Shown here in pieces: positions 1-20,000 of a stretch of 20,000 bases of DNA. Each line of letters starts with the position of its first letter. The stretch's first letter is position 1. The stretch is from the NCBI GenBank assembly GCA_008632985.1, contig QPGO01000294.1, positions 49,906-69,905 on the forward strand, in the 5' to 3' direction. The position numbers were made by a program, and so were the translations under genes. Below the pieces are notes generated by a model, which made no database searches, had not been told where the DNA came from, and saw nothing but the letters and a program-made list of their open reading frames with translations. This DNA is from Psammoneis japonica. Lineage: Eukaryota.

Positions 1-1388
1 GTCGTTTTTGTGCACGATTTGGGTCACGTGCGGCTGGAACACGTCTTGGTCATCTTCCAGGAAGACAGATGCCAGGATTTTGCCGGTGCCCTGATTTCCA
101 TCGCAAGGAAGTGCAGCGGTGTCGGGGACTTCTTGATGACTGCATCATCAGAATGATCATGTTTACTGTGCAGTCGAGTCAGTCTCTGGCAACCGTTGCC
201 AATTGGAGCATTTGATCTAAACTGCGACACAACAGAGGAAACAATCAATTTTGTTTTGATCACTCTTTGGAAGCATTGCGGATGTCGCTTTTCCCATGTT
301 TTAAGACAGCGGTCGTTTCAAGGAGCACCGCGTGGTGTCTTGTTTCAATCCCCAAAGGCGGCAGCTCACTGGGTCGGCGGTTGAGTGTGCAAGCAGGAAA
401 TGTGTCCCCGGCAGTGGGAAGAGCAGTGGAGTCTGTCAAAGAGAGACAGCACAGCTTTAGAATCGTCCAACAAAACACCTCTGGCGGGTGAATTCAGCCA
501 AAAGGTCATGAAAAGCTCCACCGGCATGCACTGCACGACAGCTCATGGTGTTAAAAAGGAAGCAACCAAGACGACCTTGACCTCTTGGAGAAGCCTGTTG
601 GCTGCTCTGCTGCTGGTGCTGCAGGCCAGATGACTTTACAACACGAAACATGACAAAAGTCGTCACCTTGTGCGCGTTGCCATTTCCAGCCAATGAAATC
701 CAAAGTGGCATCATTTGGAATGAAGAGTGGAGTCGAGTTGTTGTTGGCTTGATTCCAATTTGCACGCCCAACGGATGCACCGTAACTGATGCTTCAATTC
801 TGCTAGAGTCAGTGTCATGCTGCTGCTGCTGGGAACCACCGCGATCCTAGAACAACACACATTCCAACACCGAGTGAGGTGATTGCACCCAATGGTTGTT
901 GCGTGTTTTTGTTGCGCACTGCTGCAGCACACAACATGAAATTGGCAATGACAGCAGAATCTTTAATGGAGAACAACCAGATTTTTCTTTTGGCAATTGC
1001 ACGTCAAACTTTTTTGGCTGCTGCACTGTAGATCCCTGCTGCCGGCAGTCGGATGGAGACAGGCAGTTTGGCGACCAAACGGCATTTCATGCCAGTGGTG
1101 CACTGCACAACATCTGTTTGCCCTCATCCATTTTAAGCTGCAATTTCATCACCAACTAGATCAAGAACGTCACCGCACCACTGCCATTCCTTCAGTGAAT
1201 TTGGACGTAAGACACAAGACGTGAGCATGTGCTGTTGCTGCAATTTGCTCTGGCTGTGCAGAGGGCATCGTGATCGTTCAAAAGGATGGCAGCGTGCCAC
1301 ACCATCAAAGTTACATTCACCATTGTTGAAACATTCAACAAACGATTTCACCTTGGCAAAGCTCCTCTGATGAGGTCTTGGGTGCCCA

Positions 1389-1990
1389 GGAAAAGATGTG
1401 CTGCGAAAAGTGCTGACTCCAAAAAGCGACGTTGTGGATTTCATCGATTGGCACTGTGGTGAATGTGCGCAAAGCAATGTTGAAAAAGAGCATGCAGTGG
1501 CAATGGCCGTTCAGCAGGGCTGTGATGTCGCACTCATTCACTCACTCCAACATGGGACATGGTGAGCCATTGCAATGGAATCCTTGACACAGAACATGAC
1601 CCTCTTTGTGAGAATGGTGAGGCGGAATTCTCGGCATCAGATCTTCCAAAACGATCCGTCAAGGCAAAGAAATGTGCACAACCTGTGATCTGTACATTGA
1701 CTGTGGAGATGTGGTGACTGTTGGGGTGTGGCTGAATCCCCAGCTCTGGATCTTTCCCAATCACGGTGTTTGCTTCGAAGTGGAAGGGTGCTGTGACGAA
1801 AGCAAAGAATTCGAACTTGACATTTGGTTGGAAGTGGAGCCTGAGCACCCAGGAAAGGATGCACTTGGATTGCCAGAAAAAAGTCTTTTTCTTCAGCAGC
1901 ATCTCAAGGAATTTGAAGAAAAGAGGGATTCAGACCTCAAGGCTGGAGGATCTGTGCCAAAAATGAATGGGATGTTTTACAGTGCAGTTC
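1389..1990 (+). pseudogene. Decayed SET-domain (LSMT/SETD3-SETD6-like) methyltransferase gene fragment
   Basis: Joining frames gives GKDVLRKVL...AVAMAVQQGCDVALI/PTWDMVSHCNGILDTE.../IRSSKTIRQGKEMCTTCDLYIDCGD...PQLWIF. This matches the SET signature LIPxxDMxNH followed by A(S/T)RxIxxGEE(I/L)xxxY. There is an 8-bp insertion at 1539-1546 and further frameshifts. The 5' boundary is uncertain and may extend to ~950. Confidence 0.65.
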
Positions 1991-4900
1991 TTCAATGCAA
2001 AATCAGACACAACAGAAGCTGTGCTTGAGTGGTTGGAGGAATGCGACAACAAGCTGTAAGGTGTTTTAAAGCTCCGCCTCACTGCAACTTGTCTCTTGAG
2101 GAGATTCACAAGCGGAAGAAATTTCTGGATCCCTGTGGCATGGAAATGCTCAGACGAGATTGTTGAACGACTTGTGGGTGAACAGGTCGATGAGGTCAGA
2201 GGACTGTCTTTGCTGACAGCAGCATTGGAGCTGGCTTGGTGGCTTGTCATGCCCTGGATGAGGCAGGACTCATTTGCAAATGTCTTGACATCAACAATGC
2301 AGTCAAGACAAAGAACAAGAAGATTGTGTGGTGTCAACTGGGGGATGCCACAAACGAAGAAAAACAAAGGCCTCATTTGTCAGTGCTTCACTTTGAGCAT
2401 GCAGCTGGACCAAACCTTCAGACAGAATGCCATGAAATGATTCTGCTTTTGCCCCTTTACTTTGGAGAGGGAGGCACAACCAGCGATGCTGTCTTGGACG
2501 CCAGCACACAATGGCAGGCCATTGGGAGAGTGTTTGGACCCGGACAGAGCAGCCCGGTTGTCAATCTCTTCAGGATTGAAGTTCGTGGTCCCAACGATGA
2601 AGAGTGCCTTGATGGTCAGCCAATTTGCCAAAACACTGACAAGGAGACAATCGTGATGGCAATCAATGCTGGGGATGAATGAAGATCATGTGGTGTTTGC
2701 TGCAATTGTTCTCAGTCAGTGTTGATCTGTTTGGCACTTGCTTGTTCCTCCTTCTGATGCTTCAGATGAAGTCCTTCCTCAAATCATTGTTGTCCAAGTT
2801 GACTCTGCCCAGCCTTGTTGCCTGGAACCACACACAAAGAGAACATCATTTGAGAAACATCCAGACTTGTTTGGTCTGCTGCAACTTAGAAATGACTGGC
2901 TGCCTCAACACTGCATCTGTTGTGTGCAAAGTGTCAATCTTGACAACAAACTGGGTTTCACAGAAATGGTGCTGGGAGAAGAATGTGCCCAAAGCCAGCA
3001 ACTCCAGCTGCTGTGGTGTGCATTCAGAGTCAAAAGAGCAGACAGCTGGGGGGGGGGATTGTCAAAAATCTAACTGCAGCAGGGTCTCCACATCTTTCAG
3101 CTTGATCTGTGGACAGCCAATGGCCTCCCCCTGCAGAAGTCCCCTTCACACACTTTTGCAGGATTGGATGCTGGTGTGCTGATGGCTCAGATTTGCTCAA
3201 GCACAGGCTTTTCCCCAGAGAGCCACCTGCTGCCAGCATTGTCACATTTTGAAGAGTTTTTGCCACACCATTGATTGAGTGCCAAAAGAGTGAAGAGGAA
3301 ACAAAAATCTCCAATGCCAAGGATCAGGCAACACATTTTCAGGCACCCCCCTGGCAGATGACTTGATGCACCCAGACATGACTTGCCCATGAGATTGTTC
3401 ATTTTGCTGCAAAGAGGCCCCACATGCACCATTGCTCAGCAAGCCATGCCCTCTGCTTGCAAAAGAAAAATGTCCCTGCACACACCAGTGCAAAAGCAAA
3501 TGTGGTGGATTTGAAACACAGGTGTGAACAGCACACAATCAGGCAAAGGCAATTCATTGAAGAAGCCAACCGTTTTTTTGTTCTGCAGCTTGTCAAGACT
3601 CACAATCAAGGCCTCTGTTCTTGGCACAATTGCCGCACCAAACACAGAGACAGGACAGCCCCAATTGTCAGCATGCAGAGCTGCACTCACCTGCATTGGA
3701 GCCACATGTTCTCCCACACAACAATGAAAAAAATTGAGAAAGACAGTCACCATGTGCTTCTTTGAGAATGTGCTGACATGGCTTTGTGAACAAGCCACTG
3801 CAGGTTGTGCTCAGAAAAACACCCCTCTGCCTGACAGATGGTGGCTTGCATTTGTCACAGATCAAGCCAAAAATGGAAGTCCACAACTTGGACATCATGC
3901 ACCACTTTGCCAGCTCTGCATCCTTGCATTTTTAGAGCAAACAGTGTTGCAGCATGGCCAGGGTTGGTGGGGTTTCAAGTTTGGGTCAGGGGACAGAGAG
4001 TGGAAATTTTCTGGCAAAACTTGAAGCATGTGTGTGACCAAGCAAGATTCCATCTAAAAAGTTAGTCTGTGACATGACCAAGTTAATCTGCTGTGAGGAG
4101 CCAGCACCCAAAATGCTTGCCACAGGTGGCATGGTGCCAACAAGAACAACAGCGCCATCAACACAGGCTCCCATGCTAAGAAATGTGTTGTTTCTTTTGC
4201 TCAGAGCACTGCTCCAATGTTTTCCATCACTCCCATTGATTGCACAACAACTCCTTTGAAACACAAGAGCTTCCTTCCTCCAAAATGATGCAGCCACCTG
4301 AGTTGATGCACTCATGTCCAGTGCCATGGTTGCTGCAAGCGCCTGCCCCTCCAATGACTCCCTGGTGTCATGTCCCATTGACTGAATGACCATGTGGCTC
4401 TTCTGAAACACAACAGCTTCTGCCTCTGAAACAACATTGCAGCTGCCAGAACTGAAGCACTCATGCCTCCCACAGATGCCAGCACAAGCCCACCCCTCCA
4501 ATGTCTTGCAGCCATGGTGTTGAAAACATTCCAAGAAAGACACAAAACATGCATTGCAAGGAGCAAGAACCTCATGCTGAGCTCCAGCCATCAAGCTGTC
4601 TTCATCCATCTTGACATTCAAAGTCCAGCCAGTGCTGCATGCTGTGAGCTGAGTGAACCACTGTTGCTGGTGCTGGAAGCACCAGAGACAAACGAGCTGA
4701 AACACAGTCACATGTGCTGGCACCATTTCACCTGAAAAAAGGACAGAGATTGTGCATGAGCATGCCCCACTGGCAATCAACAGACTGCACCCAAGACTCA
4801 ACTGGCAGCTGGAACGTCATGATTCAGCAGCGTGGTTGTGAGCAAATCTGGATGGAGAGCCATGTCACAATTGGTGATTGGTTGACACATGTGAGTCGAG

Positions 4901-5451
4901 TGGTGCTGCAGCAACCCGCTCACAATCCAATCAGGTTTGGGCTGCATTGACAGTGTTGCCACTTTCCATTGGACGCAAGGTGTCGCACTTGTTCTTTCGT
5001 TGCATCAAGATTTATTGCTTTGTCAGAGCCAAGACGAAAAAGACAGAACAAAATGGTTTCAAACACAACTCGTCATGGACGATTGTTTGTTGTGTTGTTT
5101 GCATGGAATGTGCAGCTGTAGAAACGGTGCTGAACTGTGCGCGATGCGTCAGAATTCGGATTGATGCGCATGAAGATGCGTCTCGTGTCGCTTGTCATGA
5201 TGTCCACAAAACAGCTTGCAATGGCAACACTTGCAATGACAGTCACTGTCCTCACATGTGTGATGGGTGTGAGGGGACTGCGGCATTGGGCGACATGCCC
5301 GAGCCTGTGCTCAATGATGTCGGTTGACATGAACGACACAGGACTGATCACCCTGACGTCGGGTGGCTGTGTGAACCCATCATCACAACACAGAGAAAGT
5401 GCAGCTGCCGTGACCATGCAGACTCACAGCTGTGTGTCCCCAATGCGGAGG

Positions 5452-6227
5452 ATGGCAGCAGTGGCAGCACCAGCAGCAGCACTTGTGGCATTGGCCGCGG
5501 CAGCTGACATTGACGCAGTTTTGCAAGTTTGTGGTGTTGCTGACCAGAACGCAAGGGCAAGGTTGGTTTTCTACGAAGGGTTCATGACTTTGGAAAACAT
5601 CGCAGTGATGGAGAGTGACCATGATGTGGAAGATGTGGTGCAGAGGGCATCTTGTCACACGGTGGCCGACGGACGCGTGACTCTGGGACTGTTCAGATCA
5701 AGAACTTGCAGGCGCTAGCATGGTGGTGCCAGGATTTGCTTGAATGGAACCAGCCATTGGTTGCGGCAGACTTTAATGCAGCAGCCATGGCTGCGGCCCG
5801 GGATGGCAGGCGCATCAAAAAGGAGCGCACGGACTTGGACGCGTCGGCAAGCGGCCTCGTGAAGTTTGAGCCTGATGATTTTGATGTGTGCGAAGACGCT
5901 TTCTTGAATCTCCTGGCACAGAAGTTTGGCGTGTTGAAAGATCCCCTTTGCCATGTGGCAAGGATGATGCCAGCTCCGGCTGCATTCGCGGACACCCAAC
6001 AACAGCGCATGCACCAGACACCTTTGAATGGTGCCGCATGTGACGAGGACAACCGCAGCGTTTGTCATGTGTTGAAGGAACACTTGGTCGACATGGCAGG
6101 ATGGGCATGGATCAAACCGTTTGACGCAACAGAAGATGGGCGTGGAGCATTCAACGCATGGGTTGACCATTGCAACGGACAGGGCGAGTTGAGCAAGCGC
6201 ATTCATCTGGCTGTGGCAACTGTTGAA
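5452..6227 (+). pseudogene. gag: Copia gag, N-terminal and central part (frameshifted, interrupted)
   Basis: ATG at 5452 opens MAAVAAP...DGRVTLG. A 1-bp frameshift at ~5686 continues as TVQIKNLQALAWW...PLCHVAR...DNRSVCHVLK...GWAWIKPFDATEDGRGAF..WVDHCNGQGELSKR, which I recognise as CoDi-type gag. Similarity is lost after ~6227. Confidence 0.8.
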
Positions 6228-6415
6228 ATGACGTGTTCCAGTCCCAGGTGACACACAAAATGACAATCGATTTTGAATGTAAATTGTGCATCTCTCAGTG
6301 CATGAAGCACTTTCACACAAAATGCTCAGGAGGATTGGCTTTTACAGGCATCTGGAGCATGAACAATTGTGAAGAATTAAACAGTTTTTTGTGGGGTGTT
6401 GAATTCCTCATGGGA

Positions 6416-6615
6416 NNNNNNNNNNNNNNNNNNNNNNNNNNNNNNNNNNNNNNNNNNNNNNNNNNNNNNNNNNNNNNNNNNNNNNNNNNNNNNNNNNNNN
6501 NNNNNNNNNNNNNNNNNNNNNNNNNNNNNNNNNNNNNNNNNNNNNNNNNNNNNNNNNNNNNNNNNNNNNNNNNNNNNNNNNNNNNNNNNNNNNNNNNNNN
6601 NNNNNNNNNNNNNNN
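6416..6615. other. Assembly gap (200 N)
   Basis: Run of N; the true length is unknown. Confidence 1.
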
Positions 6616-7088
6616 AAGCGCAAGATTTCCAAATGAGCCATTGTGGTGGCGGTGGCCACGGCTTTTGTTGAGGTCGTGGTTGCGGAGGAAGATTTGGATG
6701 TGGGGGCGGACGTGGACGTGGTGGTGGACGCCAAGGTGGAGGGGGCGACCACACTGCTGTGCTCAATGGAGCAGATGTGTCCGACCCCACAAGGAGCTTT
6801 AGCGCTCAAGAATGGGAAAAGTTGCAGTGCAATGGAGGCATGAGCTGCATGTTCCAGGCTCGCGAACGAATGGGTCATGGACGCGGTGGTGGCCGTGGGT
6901 CTCCCGCAGGTCGCGATGGGGGCGGCAGGCATGCAGCTGAAGCCCGAGTCCATCAAGATGGCCAAGACCAAACCCAACAACAGGATCAGGAGCAAAAGAG
7001 CAGCGGGCGTGGTCGCGGCGCTGACCGTGATCGCGGTGGATGCAATGGACGCACCTTTGGTCGGGGAGCCCATGATGGTTCCACCTGA
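6616..7088 (+). pseudogene. gag: Copia gag C-terminal RGG-rich region
   Basis: GR/RGG repeats flank LNGADVSDPTRSFSAQEWEKL and end FGRGAHDGST* (TGA 7086-7088). The internal TGA at 6669-6671 and several TGT/TGC codons are consistent with decayed Arg (CGN) codons. Confidence 0.75.
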
Positions 7089-7097
7089 CTCCTTGGG

Positions 7098-10000
7098 GTG
7101 GCAACAGCTGCTGGAGCATTGGCGCATTTGGCACACTTGTCGTTTTTGCTTGTGCCACTCTTCTTGCTCTTGACTCGACCCCACCCAATGTCTCGTTTCA
7201 AAGGAAAGGCGACAAAGAGACACATTGCTGTAACGTCAAAACGTGTGATCCGATCGATGAGTTCTGCACAGATGACAAATTTGATGACACCTGGGTTCAT
7301 TGCTCGAAATGAATGTGACACTCACGTGGACACTTGTTGCACTGGAGCGAACTGGAAACTCATGGAGTTGACGAATGAAGTGTGCAAAGTGCACCCATTT
7401 CTGGACTCTTGTGAGCCGATCAAACAGATTCCTGTGGCACGTTGTTGCACCGCACGGACAGATCCGGAAACGACTCGTGAACATTTGCTGGTTGGTGATC
7501 AAATGCTCTGGTTTGGAACCGACACGGAACATTCACTTTTGAATCCCAACCAACTCCGTGCGCACAACATGCCCGCACACGACAACCCTTGCAACACTCG
7601 AAACGGATTTGGCATTGAAGCTGACGAAGCTTTCATCCCTTTCAATGCCACGGGGACAATTGTGTCTTTCAAGTCTCGTGTTCCAACGGATTGGGAAGTG
7701 CAGAACTCACCGGTCATGCTGTTGACAGGTGACACATGGGATCCAGCACAGACAGACATGGGCTCACCGGAGCGCACTGGAGCGCAGGCGGAGATGCGTG
7801 CCATTCGATCATTGAACTCTGGCATGTGACAAGAAACGCTGGGGCAAGGTCAAAATGCAACTGTCATCAATGTCCCCCATCTGTCAACTTCAATTGTTTT
7901 GGGACAGACTTGTCAGCTCAGTTGATGTGGCTTGCACATGTCGCGACGACGTGGACAAGAGGCAGATGGCAGTCAAAGATTTGCACAGCAAGGATCGACA
8001 CTCAAAAGTTGACGCTGAAGAGTTGGCTCGGAAATGGAGTGTCGGCTTAGAAACGGCAAAAGACACTCTCAACGTAACTGCTCAGCGCGGTGTGCGAACG
8101 GCGACCCAGCCGATGTCACGAAGAGTGAGGGTGGATCATCTTGACTTGCATCGGAAGCGTCTGAAAGGAACATGATTTGTGGATGCTTTGACATCCAAGG
8201 TGAAGTCCTCACTCGGCAACACGTGTGCCAATGTTTGCACTCAGGGCAAATTCGTGAAGGTTGTGCCGATGACCGCCAGGTCGGAGGCAGGTTTGTCTCT
8301 TGTTGAATTTACAGACGACGTGGGTGCACCAGAACATCTTGTGTCAGATGGGGCAGGAGAGTTCACCGGAAGGAGCACCGAGTTTGTGAGACACGCACGA
8401 CGCATGAGGATGCAATTGAGAACATCAGAACAGGGCCGAAAGAATCAGAATCAGGCAGCGGAGCACGAAATTGGTTTCTTGGCCAAGCGCTGGCGGCTGC
8501 AGATGACAAAGAAGAAGGTGCCAAAGCGATCATGGGACTTCTGTCTTGTTTGCAAGTCGGAACTGGTGTCGCGCATGGCAAGAGGCAGAGACAAGAGGAC
8601 TGGACATGAAGAGGTCACTGGACAGACACCGGAAATGGGCGAGTGTTTGGACTTTGGTTTCTGTGACATGGTGTGGTGGTGGGACAGGCCCAACAAGCCA
8701 AATGCAACAGACGATCCTCGAAGGCTTGGACGGTGGCTTGGCATCTCTCACAAAGTTGGCTCGGACATGCGCCATTGGATCATTGCGGAAAGCGGGAAGA
8801 TTGTCTCCAAAACATCCGTTGAGCACGTGACACAGGCTGACATGGTGCAACCGGACATTTGTGTCAAGGTCGACAACTTTAATGAGCAGCTGGAGAAGCG
8901 ATTGGATGATGCCAACTTTGTCTCAAAGGGTGATGAAGCAGCACCCCCATTTGTGTTGGACGATCTTGCAATTGACGGCAACTCTGGTGTGGAATGTGAG
9001 GGCAGTGTCACGCCAGAGGACAAGGAACATGGCGACATGCCATTGCCCGACGAGCAACCAGACGACAATGATGAGCAGGCAATCGATCAACACCTGGGAA
9101 TGGAACTTGTGTTTGACATCGGAACCGACGGCAAGCAACGTGGTGTTGCAACGAAACCTGCAAGAGGACAGGATGGGCGTCCAGTTGGGACTCGGCATCA
9201 AAACCCATTGTTTGACACTCGCGAGTGCGAAGTGGAATGTGCCGACGGAACCACAGATGAGCACACAGCCAATGTCATTGCCGAGAACATGTTTGCTCAG
9301 GTTGACAGCAAAGGCAACCAGTGTTCTGTCTTGCACGAGATGCAGGACCACAAGAGGAGTGACGATGCAGTGTCAATTGCTGACGGTGCCGTGCGAACCG
9401 CTGACGGGAAGGAGAAGAAGAAGATCACAACAAAAGGGTGGAAGTCATTGGTCGGATGGAAGGATGGCAGCTCATCTTGGGTCAAACTCAAAGATCTGAA
9501 GGACTCCAACCCCATTGAAGTTGCTGAGCATGCTGTTGCGAACAGGTTGACGGAGGAACCTGCTTTTGCTTGGTGGGTCACACATGTCCTGCGCAAACGG
9601 AATCGCATTGTGTCCAAGGTTAAGAAGAAGCACTGGTGCATGACTCACAAGTTTGGGGTCTGATTGCCCAAGTCAACGGAGGATGCTCTGCGGATAGACC
9701 AGGAAATGGGGACAGATCATTGGGCTCGTGCAATCAACAAGGAGATGGCAAAGGTGAAGGTGGCATGGCGCGAGCACGAGGCTGAAACCCCTCAAGTCGT
9801 CCGGGAAGGCAAGAGTGCAACTTTGCGTGGTTGCAAGGAGATCAGGTGCCACATGGCATTCGATGTTAAAATGGATTTCACCAGAAAGGCAAGGTTTGCA
9901 GCTGGCGGACACACGACAGAGGCTCCGGCATCGATCACTTGTTCTGGCATGGTTTCCAGAGACAGTGTGCGACTTGGATTCTTGTTGGCAGCTTTGAATG

Positions 10001-10950
10001 GGATCGACATTGCAGCGATTGTTCTGGAGAGTGCTTGTCTCAATGCACCGTGCGCAGAGAAGATGTGGTTTGAAGGCGGAAAGGAATGCAGCGAGTGTGA
10101 AGGAAAGGTGCTTGTTGTCACTTGGGCGATTGATCTGGAGAATGCTTGTCTCAATGCACCGTGCGCAGAGAAGATGTGGTTTGAAGGCGGAAAGGAATGC
10201 AGCGAGTGTGAAGGAAAGGTGCTTGTCATCACTTGGGCGTTGTGTGGCTTAAAGAGCTCGGGACACTCGTGGAGGTCTGCACTGTCATCGGTCTTGCGTG
10301 ACTTGGGCTTCGAATTGACGAGAGTGGATCCGGATGTCCACTTGCGTGCGGCGACTCGTGAGGACGGGCATGAGCATTGTGAAATGCTTTTGGTTCATGT
10401 CGATGACACACTGATCATTTCCCATCAGGGGAAGTCCATTGTTGCTGCAACAGGTGAACACTGTGCCGTGAAGCCCGGCAGTGAAGGAGAACCAGAAGTT
10501 TGTCTTGGGGCCAACGTTGAGAGGGTTCAGACTCAGGATGGGCGCACGATTTGGGCAAGTTCACCGAGATCACATGTTAAATCGGCGATTGAGACTGTGG
10601 AAGGCCTGTTGGATGAAGACGGCAATGGAGAGGTTCTGAAGAACAGTGCAAAGGATCCACCACCCCCAAAATGCAAACCAGAGCTGGACGTGACGGACGA
10701 GTTGGGCCCCGACTTGGTGGACAGGTGTTTGCAGCTGACAGGGATTTGTCGTTGGGCGATCAAGTTGGGTCGCATCGACATCTTGCATGAGGTCTCAATC
10801 TCATCTCAATGTCAAGCCAACCCGAGGAAAGGACACCTTGAGGCATTGTGTCATGTGTTTGCGCACATGAAGAAGCACCAGAATGTTGGGCGCATCGGAT
10901 TTGATCCAAAGGAACCGGTGATTGATGAATCCATTTTTAATTCAAATGCA
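7098..10950 (+). pseudogene. pol: Copia pol: aspartic protease (~7300-7750), integrase (~7990-8850), chromo-like segment (~9425-9580), reverse transcriptase (~9700-10950)
   Basis: The ORFs 7098-7829, 7855-8175, 8179-9663 and 9664 onward join through one frameshift (~7827-7855) and in-frame TGA stops at 8173 and 9661. The RT catalytic motif reads HVDD at 10396-10407. RNase H is absent. Confidence 0.93.
10018..10239 (+). repeat. In-frame 111-bp tandem duplication inside RT
   Basis: 10018-10128 and 10129-10239 are near-identical (4 mismatches seen), with GCG at each boundary. The peptide IxLExACLNAPCAEKMWFEGGKECSECEGKVLVxTWA occurs twice. Confidence 0.97.
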
Positions 10951-11019
10951 ATTAATTTCACTCTGTGTGGGGGGGCATGGCATTTGGACAATCCAAACAT
11001 GCCGGTTTGTGCCGTCAAG

Positions 11020-12768
11020 AAATGTTCGCGTTGTGGTGCAAAAACACTTGGGACGAAGAGATTTTGTCTGAAAATGAAGACAGTGGCAAGCAAAATTGAC
11101 TTGCACGAATCTCACAAACAAGACTTGCCTCTGTGTCAGTCACGTCGCGGTGCTGTTTTCTTTGGTGGGGAATTTCAGCTGCTGCCTCCCGCAACACCTG
11201 CGTTGTTGCCTCCGTTTTCCCGTCTGTGTCCAATGCACGTGTTGGGCCACATGGAAAACCCATTGAAAATGTCTTTGAGAGCAGTTTTTCTACAAGGCAA
11301 CGGAACTCAAGCGACTCAATCATGCCCATGCATCCAAAGTGGACAACACAACATTGCGGAATTCGATGAAGGCAAGGAAGATGTGAAGGAGTTGCTTCAA
11401 GATGCTGTTGCAAACACCAAGCAAGTCAAGAATGGAAGCAGTTTCAAAAGTTGGGAAAGCTTGAAGATGCGCTTTGCATTGGCACGAACCGACTTGTTGC
11501 TGCAGCGCTGTTCCACTGGACCTTTCTGCCTCCTTGGCAACAGCACGCGATTTCTTTGTCATGCGCGACACTCTCTGCTGCAGCTGCCAGAGCTGGCTCT
11601 AGCTGCTGGAGCAGAGGACAGAGCTGCAACACTGCTTCTAACACTGTCTGCTCTAGAGAGATCGCCTTCGAGAGATTCGTGTTCTCAGCCCCGAAATGAA
11701 ATGATCTGATTGGGCAAACAACGTCCGTGCGGCTCTCAAACTGACATCATTGCTGATGCATTTGCTTGAAGCGCGTGAACAAACATGGAAGATTGACGGC
11801 CAAAGCCAAACACATGACAGTGGACAGGCATTGCATGTGGAGAGGCAACGACGGTCGCGCCTTTGCAGTGTTTTGGAACCTGGTGTGTCGGACAAATGTT
11901 CGCATCGTGGTGCAAAAACACTCGGGACGAAGAGATTTGGTCTGAAAATGAAGACAGTGGTGAGCGAAATTGACTTGTGTGAATCTCACGAACAAGACTT
12001 GCTGCTGCATCAGTCGTCGTCGCGGTGCTGTTTTCTTTGGTGGGGAATTTCAGCTGCTGCCTCCCGCAACACCTGCATTGTTGCCTCCGTTTTCCCGTCT
12101 GCATCCGATGCACGTGTCAGGCCACAAGGAAAACCCATTGAAAATGTCTTTGAGAGCAGTTTTTCTACAAGGCAACGGAACTTAAGCGACCCAATCATGC
12201 CCATGCATCCAAAGTGGACAGTGCAACATTGCGGAATTCGATGAAGGCAAGGAAGATGTGAAGGAGTCGCTTCAAGATGCTGTTGCAAACACCAAGCAAG
12301 TCAAGAATGGAAGCAGTTTCAAAAGTTGGGAAAGCTTGAAGATGCGCTTCGCATTGGCGCGAACCGACTTGTTGCTGCAGCGCTGTTCCACTGGACCTTT
12401 CCGCCTCCTTGGCAACAGCGTGCGATTTCTTTGTCATGCGCGACACTCTCTGCTGCAGCCACCAGAGCTGGCTCTAGCTGCTAGAGCAGAGGACAGAGCT
12501 GCAACACTGCTTCTAACGCTGTCCACTCTAGAGAGATCGCCTTCGAGAGATTCGCATTCTCAGTCCCGAAATGAAATAATTTGATTGGGTGAACGACGTC
12601 CATGTGGCTCTCAAACTGATGTCATCGCTGATGCATTTGCTTGAAGCGCATGAATGAATGTGGAAGATTGACGGCCAAAGCCAAACACATGATGGTGGAC
12701 AGGCATTGCATGTGGAGAGGCAACAATGGTCACGCCTTCACAGTGTTTTGGAACCTGGTGCATCGGAC
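11020..12768. repeat. Tandem duplication of a ~875-bp unit of unknown origin
   Basis: 11020-11893 aligns end to end with 11894-12768 at offset 874-875. Differences are mostly transitions among CG/TG/CA/TA dinucleotides. Confidence 0.97.
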
Positions 12769-14473
12769 AGACTCTGTCAGGACTGACACAGGTTCTTGTG
12801 GCAAACTTGGGCATTGCTGCGAGTGCAAACCGATCACGCTACAGACGAGGAATGCACGGGAGGCAAACTGCACTCATTGTCCTCTCTTGCTTTGGCATCG
12901 AAAGCTGTTCTTGACGTTGGAAATCTTGGTTTCTCTGTCACTTGAAGGGCACACAAGGTCAGAATGCGAGTGCTTGAAACTGATGAAAGCAAATGCTGTG
13001 TCTTGGAGAGCGCACTCGGATCGACTGTGTGAAACGTAAAACCACTGTTGCACGAATCTCGATGGCTCTTGAGGGGCTGTTTCAGCTGCCAGAACAACTG
13101 TCAAGGCTTGGAGAATTGCCTCATCTGCAGAAGCACCGCAAGAGAGATGTTTCTAATGGGGAACACGTCAAGCGCAACAACCGCCAACAGTCAGAGACGC
13201 CTGCATCATAAAAACTTCGTCTCATGTTTGGATTTGATGAAAATCACATGTCTGCATCATGTTCCGAGCAACTCGAATGAGAGAGGCTTGGAGGACTCGA
13301 GAAAAAACGCTTGTCGACCCGACTCGACGCTTTGACATGTTGCAAACGACATGGGATGACCACAATGGTGAGCCTTGAGAATGCCGCAGTCCTGTCATTG
13401 TCGCCAGCAATCGCAGATGGGGCTGCAAAACAATGTGTAGATTCCCCTTGTTGCATTTCTTCATTCATGTTCATCTGTCAAAAAATGGAAATCAAAATCT
13501 GAAAAAAGAGTGTGAGTTACAAAGCATGACTCAGCAAGACGGTCACAATCGCAAACTCAACAAAACAGATCTTCAAACGCTGTGGGACGTGGAGAATGTG
13601 GCTGATGCAATGGGCCGGCGACCCACAGGAGCATTGAGCCTGTGGGGGTTCAGACATGAGATGCTCAATGAGCAACTCAAGCGGTCTGAACCACCTTGCA
13701 ACCTTCACGAAAAAGGCTGCCCTTTGGGGCATCAAGCACACCGTCTTGGTCCACGACGTCGACAGGCGTTCAGCGTGCATTCAAAGAAAGAAAGCAGAGG
13801 CTGGCCCTCCTCTGATGGAGCCAATGCATCACAGTGCACTCAAAAGCACACTGGCTGGCTCTCACCACTGCCGCATTGGACGTTTGCAAGCATTCAGTGC
13901 ACACGCAAGAAGCGAGTTTGCTGGCAATCGTGGTGCATCTCCGTCGGAACCACGGACTGCTTTGACAGGCAATCGTCATTTCACCTCAAACCGACTTCCA
14001 AAGATGTGTGCAATCTAACGCACAGAGGAAAACCATCAAGGACCCAAGCCTTCAGGTCCACCTGGCAATCGTGTGTGGACAACATTCAATGACTTAACTC
14101 CAGCAGATCTAATTCGCAACAAGAGCGAGACGATTGACTCACCGTCGGCAGAGAACTGACGCAACCATGACAATCAAGAGAGCAATGTGTTTCAAAAGGT
14201 CAAATGGCGTTTTTTGTGTGCTCCGTGCAACAATGAGCAAAGTGATTTGGATTTCACTTGTCCCGAGCCTTGACGCTTGACGTTTCGAATTTTTTTGAAA
14301 TTGTGGCGGGAAAACCAACAGCTTCTTTTGCCATCACATTTTGTGTGAAACTCATGCGAACACCGATGACGTCTGCCAAACGGAGAATCTTTCGAGCTCC
14401 GAACTCCAAGATTTCCTTCCATCCGCCACATCCGCAGCACATGCCACATCAAGCATCACATTCATTTTGTCAT

Positions 14474-14528
14474 TGCAGTTGTTGTTGCTGTTGCTGCTGC
14501 TGCTGCTGCTGTTGCAGTTGCAGTTGCA
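14474..14528. repeat. Imperfect trinucleotide microsatellite (TGC/TGT)n
   Basis: tgcagttgttgttgctgttgctgctgctgctgctgctgttgcagttgcagttgca. Confidence 0.9.
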
Positions 14529-14576
14529 TTCGTCCTTGTCTGTTTTTCAACGACATTGAACCCAACACTCAACAGC

Positions 14577-15548
14577 ATGACGACCAAAGCCCCCAAAGAC
14601 AGCGGGCTGTCTCCAACAAAAGAAAAGGAGGAGGAAAATGATTCGCGAAGGCTTCCCCGTGTTGCTTTGTGCCGACGGCATGTGGCTCAGGTCCTCTGAT
14701 TGAGGGTGCTGTCAGCAGCTGGTTGTCATTCGACCTCAGTTTGAGAATGCCGCAGTTTTGAACTGTGAGGATGATTGGGATTGGTGACACGGACAAGACC
14801 TGCAAGGCATTCTTGGAGCTTGCAGAATTGCCACTCGGCATGCCACGGGTTGGCCCCAATGCATGGAGCCAGGCATTCATGCCGGACCAGGATGGCATTT
14901 CGAATGATCTCCTTTCCTTGTGCTGTCGACTCTGCCCGCAGTGTCCCAAACGACAAAAATCTTGTTCGCCTCGCCGCAGAAGCGTTGCTGCATGATCTTG
15001 CCTTGTGCACAGAGATTGGTGCTCCTGGGACGCTTCCAGAAATTCCACGGGGGTGTTTTCAAGTCAAGAGCACACCGGACCGCTTTGCCCAGAAGGACCT
15101 TGTAACTGCAGGTTTCATCAAAATTGGACGCTTGAGCTGTTTGCAGTGGTGGGCGGATGAACGAGGACACCAGAGGCCAGCCGAGCTTCCTGCTGTTCTG
15201 CTGAAAAACATGGTTGAGGTGCTGACCAAGTGGGACACCTGTGCAAGCAGCCCCACAGTCATTCATCAACGTGGTGAAAGCTTGCTCTTTGATGGATCTG
15301 ATGAAACCCTTTGCGAGTGCCGTCACCGAAGTGTGTTGACCTGTTCCGAAACAATGTCTCGACCACTGACGTTTCTAGTGCCCTTTGTTGGTGAAGAAAC
15401 AGCGCTGAACCCACTCTGGTTGCTTGTGACCAAGGTGCAAAAAAGAACAAGCGAGGCCGAGGAACATTGGCAATGGCACGGCATTGCACAAGCGTGGGTT
15501 AAAGTGAGCAAGTTCTTTTTGCCAAATCTAGAATCTTATGATCTCTGA
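14577..15548 (+). pseudogene. Decayed hypothetical protein gene, family not recognised
   Basis: A CAA-rich leader precedes ATG 14577 (MTTKAPKDSGLSPTKEKEEEND). Protein-like stretches continue in shifting frames to ...AQAWVKVSKFFLPNLESYDL* (ORF 14775-15548). No motif recognised. Confidence 0.35.
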
Positions 15549-15688
15549 ACGCCAAGATTTCCTTCCCTCCGACACCACCACGCTTCACTGACAGAGCCTG
15601 CGACACTTCACATGCATGCCACATGATGCTGCCACATGCAACGTCATGCTCAACAGCAACAACAACAGGAACAAACAACGCAACAACG

Positions 15689-16712
15689 ATGTCGTCACTT
15701 CCAAGAGCAGAAGAAGCAACACGGTGTGTTCGTGCGACAAACAAACGCCACTGCACAAATGAAGAGACAAGTCGAGTGCTGATGCTGCAGACCGCATTCA
15801 GAAGTGGCAGCATTGACAATGAAGCCACCCTCGTTGACCTGAAGTCTCGACTGGACTCGACTCCGCTTGCTCTCGTGGTGGCTGTGACATCCTTTGGTGG
15901 ACCCAGATGCAAATCTCTCCTTGACGATTTGCCTTTGCTCAAAAAGACTGCGCCAGTGGTTCTGCTTGCTGTGGTTCTGCCCCGTCAAACCCCAAATTTT
16001 GATTTTACATGCCGATCGAATTGGGCTTGAACGAGACACCGTGTCTGTCGCAAGCATTCGCGCCAATCTTCAAGAGATCAGCAGCAGCAATGGAGGGGGC
16101 TGCTGTCCCTTTTAGCACCAGCAACACCAAGAATCCTTCCGTGTGCTGTCCTGACGGTTCATTGGATCCCAGTTCCTCTCCCACCAACCCCTTGGATGTG
16201 CTGCGATTGGTGCAACAATGGGCTGCACGCTGAAACAAATCACCAAGGCGTTGACGGATTCCAATTTGGGTCTGGGTTGCGGCTTGCGGCAATGCCACGA
16301 GCTTTGCCAGCCTGCTTGAGAATGAGACAGTTCTCCATTTGTGAAGTGGCGCTGGAGTCCATTGCTTTTTGGCTGCCGACGTTGTGGGACCGTCCTGCAC
16401 TTTCATTGAAGTGTCGACATGAAACCCCACATGTTTTACAAGGCACGAACTCATGCCAACAAGAAGAAGACGACCAATGTCGAATTCCATTTGGGAGCGA
16501 TGGAACACCTTCCCATGGCCAACGGCCCAGTGGATTGTGCTGTGAGCAATTGCATCATCGATCTCAATCCTGACAAGCCGCAGGTGTCTCGAGAAATGCA
16601 CCGCATTCTCAAACGGGGTGGTCGCATTGCTGTGTCGGACGTCGTGATTCGCCCTGAAAAGATTGTGCCCGACACCCCATTTTGCTTCAAGACGGCCGAA
16701 GCGATGACATGC
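15689..16712 (+). pseudogene. arsM: Arsenite S-adenosylmethionine methyltransferase (ArsM/AS3MT family) pseudogene with a long N-terminal extension
   Basis: Core 16203-16712 reads MGCTLKQI..DSNLGLGCG/NATSFASLLENETVLHL*SGAGVHCFLAADVVGP..I/VDMKPHMFYKAR..NVEFHLGAMEHLPMANGPVDCAVSNCIIDLNPDKPQVSREMHRILKRGGRIAVSDVV. This follows the ArsM motifs LGLGCGNP, DLGSGAG.DC, GVDM and SNCV.NL.PDK. Lesions: 7-bp duplication TTGCGGC (16284-16290), stop at 16342, frameshift at ~16411. Assigning 15689-16200 to the same gene is less certain. Confidence 0.88.
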
Positions 16713-16912
16713 ATTCTCCCCGCAACTTGTGCGGACGAAGCCTTTTGATCCATGTGGGCAGAGTTTGAATGGGAAACAAGGTGACCATTCCAACGTTGGT
16801 TCCCAACTTGTTGGTTTTTCTCCATGACATTCTGTCGAGTCGACCAACATGCGTTGCCTCACTCTGCACGACACGTTGGAAACGGGAAGCTTCCTCACCG
16901 CCAATCTCTGCG

Positions 16913-17700
16913 CAAGACAGTGCTTGTTCTTGAGGCACGCTTGCCGATTGTTTCCCGGTGCGGCTTCGTGTTGAACACTGCGCAATGCGCTTTTTCACAG
17001 TGTCTGTCAATGCCGGGAGAAAGAAACTTCTCACAAAACTGTTGGCACCGACAAGGTGTCTTGCGACGTGTGCAGCACTGTTGCAAGCACGGGTGCGCAC
17101 CCGAGTTAGATCAGTTCTTTTGGGCACTTTTGCGCATTGGTGCATCATGTCTGTTTGCTGACACAGCTCAAGTTTCGCAGTCGTTAAACCGTCAACTAAC
17201 TCAAGCGCGCTCTGTTGCTTTTGCAGTGTCTTTGGTGAAGATGCTCTCATTGATGAGAAGGACAACAACGATGGCAAGTTGGCTGGGTGCATTCGGATTC
17301 GTTCCAAGACAGTGCTTGTTCTCGAGGCGCGCTTGCCGATTGTTTCCCGGTGCGGCTTCGTGATGAACACTGCGCAACAGGCTTTTTCACAGTGTCTGTC
17401 AATGCCGGGAGAAAGAAACTTCTCGCAAAACTGTTGGCACCGACAAGGCATCTTGCGACGCATGCAGCACTGTTGCAAGCACCGGTGCGCACCTGTGTTA
17501 GATCAGTCCTTTCGGGCACTTTTGCGCGTTGGTGCATCATGTCTGTTTGCTGATGCAGCTCAAGTTTCGCAGTCGTCAAACCGTCAACTAACGCAAGCGT
17601 GCTTTGTTGTTTTTGTAATGTCTTTGGTGAAGACGCTCTCGTCAATGAGAAGAAGGATGACAACGACGGCAAGTTGGCTGGGCACATTCGGATTCGTTCC
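16913..17700. repeat. Tandem duplication of a ~392-bp unit of unknown origin
   Basis: 16913-17304 aligns with 17305-17699. Both begin CAAGACAGTGCTTGTTCT and end ATTCGGATTCGTTC; copy 2 has 3 extra bases. Confidence 0.97.
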
Positions 17701-18465
17701 ACAACACAATGAACTGCTCTGAGTTTGGGAGACAGCATCACCAGCGTTCAGAGATCCGTGCCCGAAGCCACGCAGTAAAACAAACGATTGGAATGGAGCT
17801 CACAGAGTGTGTTCTGAGCCACAATGGCACTTTTTTAGCATTGCACTGCGTGAATTAGCCCTGCCACAATCCTTTCTAACGTGTGAACAAAGCCATTCCG
17901 TGATGCCAACACTTGCCTGACATTCTTCCACAATTCATTCTCCACGTCCGAAATGAGCAAGGGTTTGGTCCATTGACTGCCACGGGTCTTGAGCAAATGC
18001 AGAGTCGCCATGACGTTGAGGCACCAGCCATGCCTGGCGCACATTTTGTTTCGTAAAACACAAGTCGCGGGGCGGGACCCACTGTGACTTGAACCTTGGC
18101 ACTCAAACAAAGACTGACTGCCGAATGAAAGGTGTGTTTCTGTGTTGTTGAAACAAAGATGAAAATCAATGCCAGCAAGCATGTCTCGAATGAAAGCAGA
18201 AATGGGCACGAAAAACGACTTGCGTTGACGGTGCACTCGAATGCAACGTGACACAATGAACGCACCCCATGGCATTGTGAATTGCAGGACAAACTTGTGC
18301 ATCAATGTTGGCGAGTCTTTGATGTGCACAAAAGCTGCTTGTGATGTGAAATGGAAGAAAGAGATGCCCCCATGCATGCTTGATTTCCAACAGTGCAAAA
18401 CAAGCATTCAATGAGTCTGGCGGCGACTGATGATCCTTGCGGATCTGTGCACAACACTCCCAGTT

Positions 18466-19173
18466 TTAGATGAAAGACACTGCCCGTTGCTCCACGAGCC
18501 CAGGCAAGCTTCTCAAAGAGACAAGACGGGCCACTTTCTCCTCGTTTCTCACAACAACAACAGTGCCCACCAGATTGACCTTTTTGTCTGGCAACTCCGC
18601 ATTTTGCACTGACCAATCATCCACAGGTTCCTCCAAATTGTCCATTGGTTCTTCCACATCTGGTGGATCATTCAAGGAATCATCAGGCTCCTCGTCTGCT
18701 GCCACAATGACTTCCCCCTTGATGACAGAATTGTCATCAACAGCAACAGTGGGATCAGACAATGGTTCTTCTTCACCCTCTCCTTCTGGGACAATGCCAT
18801 GCTGCAGCAACCCATCACCCACAGGATCCTCCAAATCATCCATTGTTGGCACATCCGCATCTGGTGGATCATTCAAAGCATTGTCTGGCTCCTCACACCC
18901 TTCAACATCTGCATCCACTGGAGCAACTTCCTCCTTGGTGACAGGATCATCATCAACAGCAATGGCAAAATCAGCAATGGGTTTCACAATCACTGCATCA
19001 GCTGGAGCAAAAATGGCCTTGACCAGTTCAATTGCCACTGGAGTCCACACCCCTTCATGCCAGTGATCACATCTTGGGTGTGGCTGACATTTGCAAGTGT
19101 GTTGGATCTGTTGTTTCCACTCAAACTCAAGCAGGGCTGCAGTCAATTGCTGGTCATCCAACACAGGTGTCAC
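18466..19173 (-). CDS. Acidic, Pro-rich low-complexity ORF with a two-copy internal repeat; probably a decayed gene
   Basis: 235-aa ORF rich in D/E/P/V. The unit AVDDxxVxKxEV...EEPDxxLNDPPD...MDxLExPVxD occurs twice. Confidence 0.4.
   Translation of the reverse strand: MTPVLDDQQLTAALLEFEWKQQIQHTCKCQPHPRCDHWHEGVWTPVAIELVKAIFAPADAVIVKPIADFAIAVDDDPVTKEEVAPVDADVEGCEEPDNALNDPPDADVPTMDDLEDPVGDGLLQHGIVPEGEGEEEPLSDPTVAVDDNSVIKGEVIVAADEEPDDSLNDPPDVEEPMDNLEEPVDDWSVQNAELPDKKVNLVGTVVVVRNEEKVARLVSLRSLPGLVEQRAVSFI
18605..18966. repeat. Diverged direct repeat (~150-165 bp, two copies)
   Basis: 18605-18750 resembles 18803-18966. Shared cores are CATCTGGTGGATCATTCAA, CCACAGGxTCCTCCAAAT and TCATCAACAGCAA. 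Confidence 0.85.
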
Positions 19174-20000
19174 ACCAGTGGTGCATCAAGGGATCTGAAG
19201 TTCTCATGGAGCAACCACACCAGCTGGGGCTGGAGGAGCATTGCCAGTGCAAATGTCTCAAAGCAGCACTTGGTCCAGTCTCCATCCAATCTGACTGCAA
19301 CCACACAGTCTTGCACTTCAAGAGCAGCAGAGCCACATGGGGGCACAAACCAAAAGGGAGCACATGTGGCACAGTGCATGGTCCACACAGCCACTGCAGC
19401 TGCAAGAGTGGCCGCAACAGCATCACATGCTCAACCACACAGAAGAGTCATCAGGTCATCAATGTCCACAACTTGGTGGTGGTGCAAGCAACAGACATTG
19501 CTGCCAACCAACTTCAACACCAAGCATGAGAACATCACAGCACACAAAGCGAGGCAAACTTTGCAGAACACAATGACAAAGGACACAACAGTGTGAGTTT
19601 TGCACCAAAGCTTGTCCACAGCAATGCACAGACTCCAAAGGAAACCATTGGTGATCCGGCCATGGCTCTGCTTGCCACCAAATGTGCGCAGCAGGAGGTT
19701 CATGAAAAGAGCATGATCAGGTGCAATGCATGGTGCAGCCACAACTGGGCAATGGCATCAGCAAAGACAGATCAACAGCAGGGCATTTCAACTCAACAGA
19801 AGTTGGATTTTTGTGTGGTGAGCAAGATGCTTGCTTGTTGTTGCAGCTGGCGCCATTTGTGCTGTGGTCTGTGCTGGAGAAACACACAGAAAAGCAGACA
19901 GTCAGTCATGTGTCAGGCCCATTTGCGCTCTGTTCCTTGCAGGCTCTCTTGGTGAAACAATCAGAGGTTGGGGCCAATGTTGAACTCATTCACAATGATG

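Follow-up and report, generated by a model that had tools for sequence, protein, structure and literature searches.

Nearly all TpA dinucleotides have been erased from a 20,000-nucleotide stretch of the genome of the diatom Psammoneis japonica (contig QPGO01000294.1, here C296, positions 49906-69905; hereafter the window), and the few that survive are strongly biased in their flanking bases. It is close to certain, in our judgement, that this bias is real and is the imprint of a flank-selective, targeted mutator. The changed base pair is the A of 5'-TAY, which is also the T of 5'-RTA (Y, pyrimidine; R, purine), and the sequence fits attack on either base equally. TpA hypermutation as such is known from Bigelowiella natans; the flank rule with its polarity and rates, and a TpA process in a diatom, appear to be new here. 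Chances appear about even that a natural repeat-targeted A-to-G DNA base editor with a 5'-TAY motif (or a T-modifying counterpart of fungal repeat-induced point mutation, RIP) has rewritten about half of this genome, that the diatom displays the end state of the Bigelowiella process, shared between these distant algae, and that the catalyst has an activity undescribed in nature.

Surviving TpA steps in the window and in the genome

Only 88 TA steps remain in the 19,800 called bases of the window, an observed-to-expected ratio (O/E) of 0.07. The ratio lies between 0.00 and 0.18 in every 500-base bin, the TA-erased domain being the whole window (1-20000), and the steps TG and CA stand at O/E 1.7 and 1.6. 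An earlier reading of the same DNA, made by a model from the letters alone (the sequence-only reading), had tallied about 88 survivors by hand as 54 YTAR, 33 YTAY or RTAR (mixed) and one RTAY; our recount over 164-18468 gives exactly these numbers, with GTAC at 1692-1695 as the sole RTAY. It had also described the survivors in pol as mostly TTAA, and this holds for 7 of the 12 TA steps in 7186-10956 (at 8879, 9620, 9866, 10249, 10577 and 10937, as listed there, and at 10952). The gene in question is the broken pol of a Ty1/copia-type long terminal repeat retrotransposon (8176-10956, plus strand; RVT_2, E 4e-9; 41 genome matches), in which no Tyr codon remains. The survivor flanks depart from a first-order Markov null (25.5/43.7/18.7 YTAR/mixed/RTAY expected; chi-square p = 8e-12) and from the flanks of the product steps TG and CA (20.1/45.6/22.4; p = 2e-18). 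The R/Y grouping masks differences between single letters: no trimer has suffered a heavier loss than ATA/TAT (5 observed, 38 expected), and GTA/TAC is found 30 times where 43 are expected.

We sampled the 91-Mb genome, whose genes have diatom proteins as their named relatives, in twenty 10-kb stretches at fixed positions, giving 200 1-kb bins. TA O/E is bimodal, with 106 bins below 0.2, 88 at or above 0.35 and 6 between, and the borders are sharp; unaffected bins range from about 0.4 to 0.8 and housekeeping loci from 0.45 to 0.60. YTAR accounts for 55% and RTAY for 3% of the 437 TA steps in the low-TA bins, whereas the 3,450 steps in the unaffected bins divide 18/53/30% into YTAR, mixed and RTAY. 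The 25/50/25 split assumed as neutral in the sequence-only reading thus needs correction, and the true neutral split is even further from the window pattern; affected and unaffected DNA do not share the same NTAN ratios, the latter showing the reverse bias. A larger set of 500 bins, partly picked around paralogues and with C296 left out, gives 56/39/5% of 818 TA steps in 210 low bins versus 17/53/30% of 10,343 in 253 high bins. Retention of each 4-mer in these low bins relative to the high ones is greatest for TTAA (0.52), CTAA (0.30), CTAG (0.12) and GTAA (0.12), intermediate for CTAC (0.08) and ATAA (0.06), and lowest for GTAC (0.027), ATAG (0.019), ATAC (0.018) and ATAT (0.005). An A at +2 protects, as in TACA (0.099) versus TACT (0.024).

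Much of the window sequence is present once or twice more upstream on C296 (1-69905) at 92-97% identity, and this contig also holds a TA-intact island near 14-18 kb. Some paralogues at 84-88% identity remain TA-intact although their copies are erased. Beyond this genome, 118 of 120 related reverse transcriptases in a public protein set have a normal Tyr content, so TpA erasure does not look general among diatom elements, with the caveat that called proteins favour intact frames. The other two (P0130 and P0202) are nearly Tyr-free and rich in His and Cys, and are 50-57% identical to the reverse transcriptase of the window.

Mutation rates measured against TA-intact paralogues

In order to measure rates directly, low-TA sequence was aligned to high-TA sequence, a single best reference being retained at each position (26,398 columns). 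The references include paralogues, on contigs C222, C349, C76 and C217, of a DNMT5-type gene whose 3' (SNF2 helicase) end persists as a decayed copy at 1387-2730 (plus strand), and the TA-intact relatives, on C21, C47, C49, C88 and C256, of a dispersed repeat at 13428-14425. Two other C296 copies were excluded from this main set because about three quarters of their outcomes are common with the window. Adenines of TA were changed to G at 471 of 1,112 positions, versus a fraction of 0.05-0.08 for adenines preceded by A, C or G. Paralogues only stand in for the ancestral sequence, however, and the history of some of the other copies may be shared with the window. The contrast is also visible in a decayed duplicate of a host-type segment (14818-18272, plus strand) whose paralogue on C342 retains TA: the two are 84% alike over 14818-17308, with 11 TA steps in the window versus 88 on C342.

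Both flanks are conserved, and the outcome is TA, TG or CA, at 358 TA sites; survival among these was 16/60 for YTAR, 15/191 for mixed and 0/107 for RTAY (p = 3e-8). The window alone (7/36, 7/103 and 0/68) and the other contigs alone (9/24, 8/88 and 0/39) give the same order. Rates are therefore not flat across flanking bases, and the enzyme-like preference proposed in the sequence-only reading, RTAY being lost and YTAR spared, is supported by direct, paralogue-anchored rates.

The TA step is a palindrome, in which TG records a change of the top-strand A and CA a change of the bottom-strand A. YTAY sites became TG and CA in a ratio of 123:53 within the 358-site set (p = 1e-7; 64:32 in the window alone, p = 0.0014; 59:21 in the other contigs alone). 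We compared two-strand competing-rate models by the Akaike information criterion, which was 666 without preference, 667 with an R/Y rule upstream of the A, 609 with one downstream, and 600 with both flanks by single letter. Under the downstream model the rates, in cumulative events per site (5-95% bootstrap), are 0.61 (0.46-0.78) for TAA, 0.89 (0.69-1.17) for TAG, 1.96 (1.68-2.37) for TAC and 1.93 (1.58-2.41) for TAT; pooled, TAY stands at 1.94 versus 0.73 for TAR, about a threefold difference. A seven-parameter model adds that an A at -2 about doubles the rate, with a wide upper range. As each palindromic site offers two chances, RTAY, with two fast strands, vanishes, and YTAR, with two slow ones, survives.

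Tyr codons tell the same story. Of 23 columns occupied by Tyr in relatives, 11 show Cys in the window, 9 His and 3 another residue. In 20 retrotransposon copies, conserved Tyr codons preceded by a pyrimidine were converted to Cys 90 times and to His 27 times, with Cys favoured at 6/6 sites, and those preceded by a purine to Cys 93 times and to His 142 times (14 sites); the contrast between YTAY and RTAY sites is significant (p = 0.0006). TA-polymorphic columns in these copies comprise 11 mixed sites and gave 7:3 (p = 0.34), with little power. The sequence-only reading had written the target as TAY and/or RTA on the modified strand: the A of TAY stands, the same pair read from the other strand being the T of RTA, and the A of RTA is rejected, its 5'-flank model being no better than no preference.

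That there is no flank preference at all, and that the pattern comes instead from ancestral composition, selection, TA steps regained through other mutations or an artefact of the assembly, is hardly credible. It can draw on the 33 window TA steps in aligned columns, 14 of which face a step other than TA in the paralogue, so that a part of the survivors may have arisen later; yet it is refuted by the opposite bias of unaffected bins and by the paralogue-anchored rates and Tyr-codon outcomes, which show the preference directly, and domain borders are sharp beside normal genes.

Mode of action

Both strands are hit, with 161 TG and 166 CA in the paralogue set and 185 TG and 187 CA in the retrotransposon. 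Neighbouring hits form no strand runs, 218 of 432 being concordant against an expectation of 215, and no distance class of the main set contains processive, strand-coordinated clusters, with p = 0.026 reached in one of 15 distance-by-set tests. Between the window and its nearest C296 copy, TG and CA disagree at 35 of the 145 sites where both have lost TA, which indicates that mutation continued in the chromosome once the duplication had occurred. An origin in retroelement cDNA, edited while it was being reverse transcribed, is rejected because host-gene duplicates are hit, both strands are hit equally and copies differ site by site.

A targeted mutator thus very probably acts on chromosomal DNA in repeat-rich, presumably silenced domains and turns A:T into G:C almost only at TpA, at a pace set by the flanks as measured above: about threefold faster at 5'-TA-N when N is C or T than when it is A or G, about doubled by an A at -2 and slowed by an A at +2. 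The hits are single, lie on both strands and have accumulated over time, including after local duplication.

Outside TpA, a weak side activity is detected: relative to intact-intact pairs, A>G is about doubled at AAY (63/746 vs 135/3,342, p = 3e-6; excess 0.044 +- 0.021) and GAY (36/670 vs 85/3,143, p = 9e-4). TAY is changed about 44 times faster than AAY. CAY shows no increase (32/769 vs 155/3,224; excess -0.006 +- 0.016), part of which could be masked by CpG decay, and an A>G excess is absent at AAR, GAR and CAR in the paralogue alignments. C>T at CA (108/2,212) is no higher than at CC or CT.

These side targets bear on a rival in which a Y-family polymerase of the Pol eta or Pol iota type, while filling gaps in methylated repeats, misinserts G at a template T when the primer ends in a T:A pair, much as Pol eta acts at the WA motifs (W, A or T) of antibody genes. 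The WA rule of Pol eta is about twofold, A>G being favoured after T and AA coming next, and AAY is indeed the best off-target here. The genome has five Y-family genes, two of them Pol-eta-like (on C18, L127, and C19, L129) and one Pol-iota-like (on C22, L126), and TA loss accompanies CpG loss, median CpG O/E being 0.25 in the 210 low-TA bins versus 0.99 in the 253 high-TA bins. Yet the 44-fold gap between TA and AA, together with the lack of any AAR excess, is far stricter than the WA rule, transversions are not elevated (0.033 vs 0.030) and there are no strand runs. CpG decay moreover lags behind TA loss, several blocks combining a 70-90% loss of TA with a CpG loss of just 4-20%, and no dependence on a nearby CpG appeared at four window sizes (40 survivors, 294 lost sites), survivors lying no farther from CpG than lost sites. 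We consider this polymerase unlikely, albeit the second most probable agent. In the window itself, CpG O/E is 0.00-0.18 in 2500-4500 and 18500-20000 and CpG is mildly reduced elsewhere, which suggests that these near CpG-free blocks are older silenced layers.

An N6-methyladenine (6mA) mark placed on repeats by a TpA-specific adenine methyltransferase, and deaminating to hypoxanthine, would likewise be expected to yield A>G at a palindromic step, in the manner of CpG decay. A profile search for MT-A70 found no match, a weak negative given that control genomes yielded none either and that MT-A70 was the only adenine methyltransferase family covered. The target is not ApT (O/E 0.89 in the window), and 6mA directed to ApT is rejected as the sole rule because TAC equals TAT. 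Such decay of 6mA comes last in our ranking of catalysts and is very improbable.

Candidate enzymes and comparison with known systems

The single likeliest catalyst, although we put it at slightly under an even chance, is an adenine deaminase of the TadA/ADAT fold; behind it, in falling order of likelihood, come the Y-family polymerase, a modifier of the T, an ADAR-fold enzyme and 6mA decay. Adenine would be deaminated to hypoxanthine in transiently unpaired DNA, and hypoxanthine would be fixed as G at replication. The enzyme might be the ADAT2/3 housekeeping pair assisted by a cofactor, or else a deaminase that has diverged beyond the reach of Pfam profiles.

Published TadA preferences lend this partial support. 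E. coli TadA edits UAC, and TadA8.20 acting on RNA is described as preferring UA 5-10-fold, with UAU favoured a further 1.5-2-fold and CA lowest, UAG scoring highest in its fixed recorder (PMC12027372). The editor ABE8e-YA is reported to favour YAY over YAR (PMC12528748), and genome-wide off-targets of ABE8e are reported to fall on TA (PMC13225742). Bacterial and engineered TadA (ABE3.1, ABE8e, ABE8e-YA and TadA8.20) thus share, in these accounts, A>G change, a strong 5' T and a modest +1 pyrimidine preference, and in the diatom DNA we find both the 5' T and the +1 pyrimidine. Natural TadA edits tRNA. In the A-to-I mRNA editing of the fungal sexual stage by Tad2-Tad3-Ame1, a housekeeping ADAT pair with a cofactor is described as acting at a U in position -1 and preferring loops (PMC11156358); that system acts on mRNA and the diatom process on DNA. 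The TadA/ADAT-like specificity suggested in the sequence-only reading is therefore borne out in its 5' T and +1 pyrimidine, in line with bacterial and engineered TadA, and not in the respects that follow.

Profile searches of the genome gave 9 matches to PF00383, 5 to PF14437 and 4 to PF02137. These are ordinary genes, including dCMP deaminase (two copies), a bacterial-type TadA, ADAT2, an ADAT1-like gene on C40 and, judging by their translations, RibD-like and guanine-deaminase-like genes; ADAT2 carries Asn at the position of TadA residue 108. One further gene, on C79 (L025:310-1785, minus strand), fuses a deaminase domain to a DIOX_N/2OG-Fe(II) dioxygenase and probably serves nucleobase metabolism.

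Several observations weigh against a TadA/ADAT-type catalyst. The expanded or unusual deaminases, especially with chromatin-binding domains, that the sequence-only reading had proposed to look for were not found: the PF00383, PF14437 and PF02137 matches include no expanded family and no fusion to a chromatin reader, although diverged families would escape these profiles. In the bacterial-type TadA, residue 108 is still Asp, and the N-terminus is extended by a stretch resembling an organelle targeting peptide, so that the enzyme may be sent to an organelle. DNA-editing TadA variants take CA as their second target, whereas here CAY is not raised and AAY and GAY are. Processive single-strand deaminases often leave strand-coordinated clusters, and none is seen. 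Fungal ADAT2/3 is reported to favour A or G at +1, as in UAG and UAA (PMC11156358), whereas TAA and TAG are slow in the diatom. Finally, three alignment-free controls show no greater pairing in 820 present-day survivors than in flank-shuffled sites, with the caveat that later mutation erodes stems. Folds of the paralogue sequence speak for the deaminase instead: for a given 4-mer, pairing was more frequent at surviving than at lost sites (p = 0.001-0.009 in six settings; with 39 of 437 distinct sites surviving, difference -0.105, p = 0.0006; p = 0.004 when A at +2 was added as a stratum). As this signal is not reproduced in the alignment-free controls, hairpin protection is a lead only.

The same data fit attack on the T of 5'-RTA exactly as well as on the A of TAY, and a base-flipping DNMT4/RID-like methyltransferase might modify or trap this T, the lesion (for example O4-methyl-T or a protein adduct) being bypassed with G so that T becomes C. 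To our knowledge no such T-modifying chemistry is known for C5-methyltransferases, and a Tet/JBP profile search of the genome gave no match (a weak negative). The process would then use the YpA step as fungal RIP does, with the reverse result. Read on the T strand, the order of targets is TpA, then TpT, then TpC, and fungal RIP signatures are reported to pair CpA with CpT (PMC4352252). The genome has 27 matches to PF00145, among them at least three intact genes (L132, L133 and L139) of a diatom C5-methyltransferase family resembling the RID-related DNMT4 of PMC9998398, a likeness that makes them candidates only; the family is expanded, and its copies L136-L138 and L142 are TA-erased. Its relatives are widespread in diatoms, including chromodomain fusions, yet nearly all related reverse transcriptases keep a normal Tyr content. 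DNMT4 was furthermore found in diatoms and in no other species of the database used (PMC9998398), yet B. natans has TpA hypermutation. A T-directed agent is therefore doubtful, a little more so than the polymerase.

RIP itself, as known from ascomycetes with RID or DIM-2, shares with the diatom process its confinement to repeats, transition hypermutation at a YpA step and sharp borders. In fungi it is set off when duplicated sequences pair ahead of meiosis. The direction is opposite: RIP makes C>T changes, from CpA to TpA (PMC4352252), whereas in the diatom TpA becomes CpA or TpG, and TA is lost rather than gained.

The poor fit of ADARs pointed out in the sequence-only reading is confirmed. 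An ADAR-fold deaminase could edit the DNA strand of RNA:DNA hybrids at repeats, and ADARs are reported to edit DNA in hybrids and to prefer a 5' T (PMC5389660). On C79, a second PF02137 gene of the ADAR fold (L123:1114-2830) has no double-stranded RNA-binding domains. However, the best hybrid sites given in that report are TAG (94%) and AAG (81%), AA being nearly as good a context, whereas the diatom signature shows slow change at TAG and no excess at AAR. The C79 gene has relatives throughout the diatoms, and the retrotransposon is free of strand bias. This leaves an ADAR-fold enzyme improbable.

The closest known process is that of B. natans, where Mettrop et al. (10.64898/2026.01.13.699255) describe TpA-only mutations of T/A to C/G in two viral insertions. 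The targets are integrated DNA of nucleocytoplasmic large DNA viruses and virophages, the de novo rate is stated to be raised about 1000-fold in a subset of lines, and ADAT2 is proposed as a candidate. As in the diatom, A:T is changed to G:C at TpA on both strands within confined domains, with loss of TpA and gain of CpA and TpG; in our data this corresponds to the A>G excess at TA and to erasure in domains while genes are spared. The diatom ADAT2, with its Asn at the TadA-108 position, is of the candidate type named there. The two cases also differ. The B. natans mutations were measured de novo in two viral regions in which TpA is mildly depleted, and the main text of the preprint, in which the words 'context', 'flank', 'trinucleotide' and 'diatom' are absent, offers no flank analysis; the diatom shows near-complete erasure (the 106 low bins in 200), hits on retrotransposons and host-gene duplicates, the measured +1 pyrimidine rule and weak RAY off-targets. 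A literature search on TpA processes in diatoms and on flank rules returned only this preprint, whose supplementary mutation table was not covered, and a 2025 preprint on diatom transposons lacks the words TpA, dinucleotide, hypermutation and RIP. In how it works the diatom process resembles both the Bigelowiella process and a TadA-type editor, and an enzyme of the TadA/ADAT family is a candidate for it, a label that is supported only in part.

Hardly any example of natural adenine deamination of chromosomal DNA is established, and the main known case of genome defence by mutation is the C>T RIP of fungi. If a system of reverse polarity has removed the TA steps of about half a diatom genome, genome defence would gain both a new chemistry and a new lineage. 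The flank rule offers a handle for finding the enzyme, as any candidate must give TAT≈TAC > TAG > TAA, weak AAY and GAY, and no CA; it also allows common origin with the B. natans process to be tested on the approximately 230 mutations mapped there. In diatom genomics, TA erasure distorts repeat ages and consensus-based dating.

Other features of the window

One DNA sequencing run covers the window with exact pieces and lists 301 differences, 259 of them transitions, but the assembly may have been built from this very run, which is not independent; no RNA sequencing run containing the window is listed. The assembly has a gap of 200 N at 6416-6615. With regard to the DNMT5-type copy, its match on C76 (locus C76:291624-298499) falls in a frame of 1,392 codons that follows a PF00145 match, and the gene copies on C222, C349 and C217 are partial; the order of domains, PF00145 followed by SNF2, and comparison with PMC9998398 suggest the DNMT5 label. 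A direct repeat with a spacing of 875 bases (families D1 and D3, 88-96% alike) occupies 11020-12317 on the plus strand. A decayed segment at 17863-19908 has a TA-intact relative on C21, 74-76% alike. Within the host-type duplicate at 14818-18272 lies a pseudogene fragment of an S-adenosylmethionine-dependent methyltransferase (16410-16745, plus strand; Methyltransf_31, E 6e-17).

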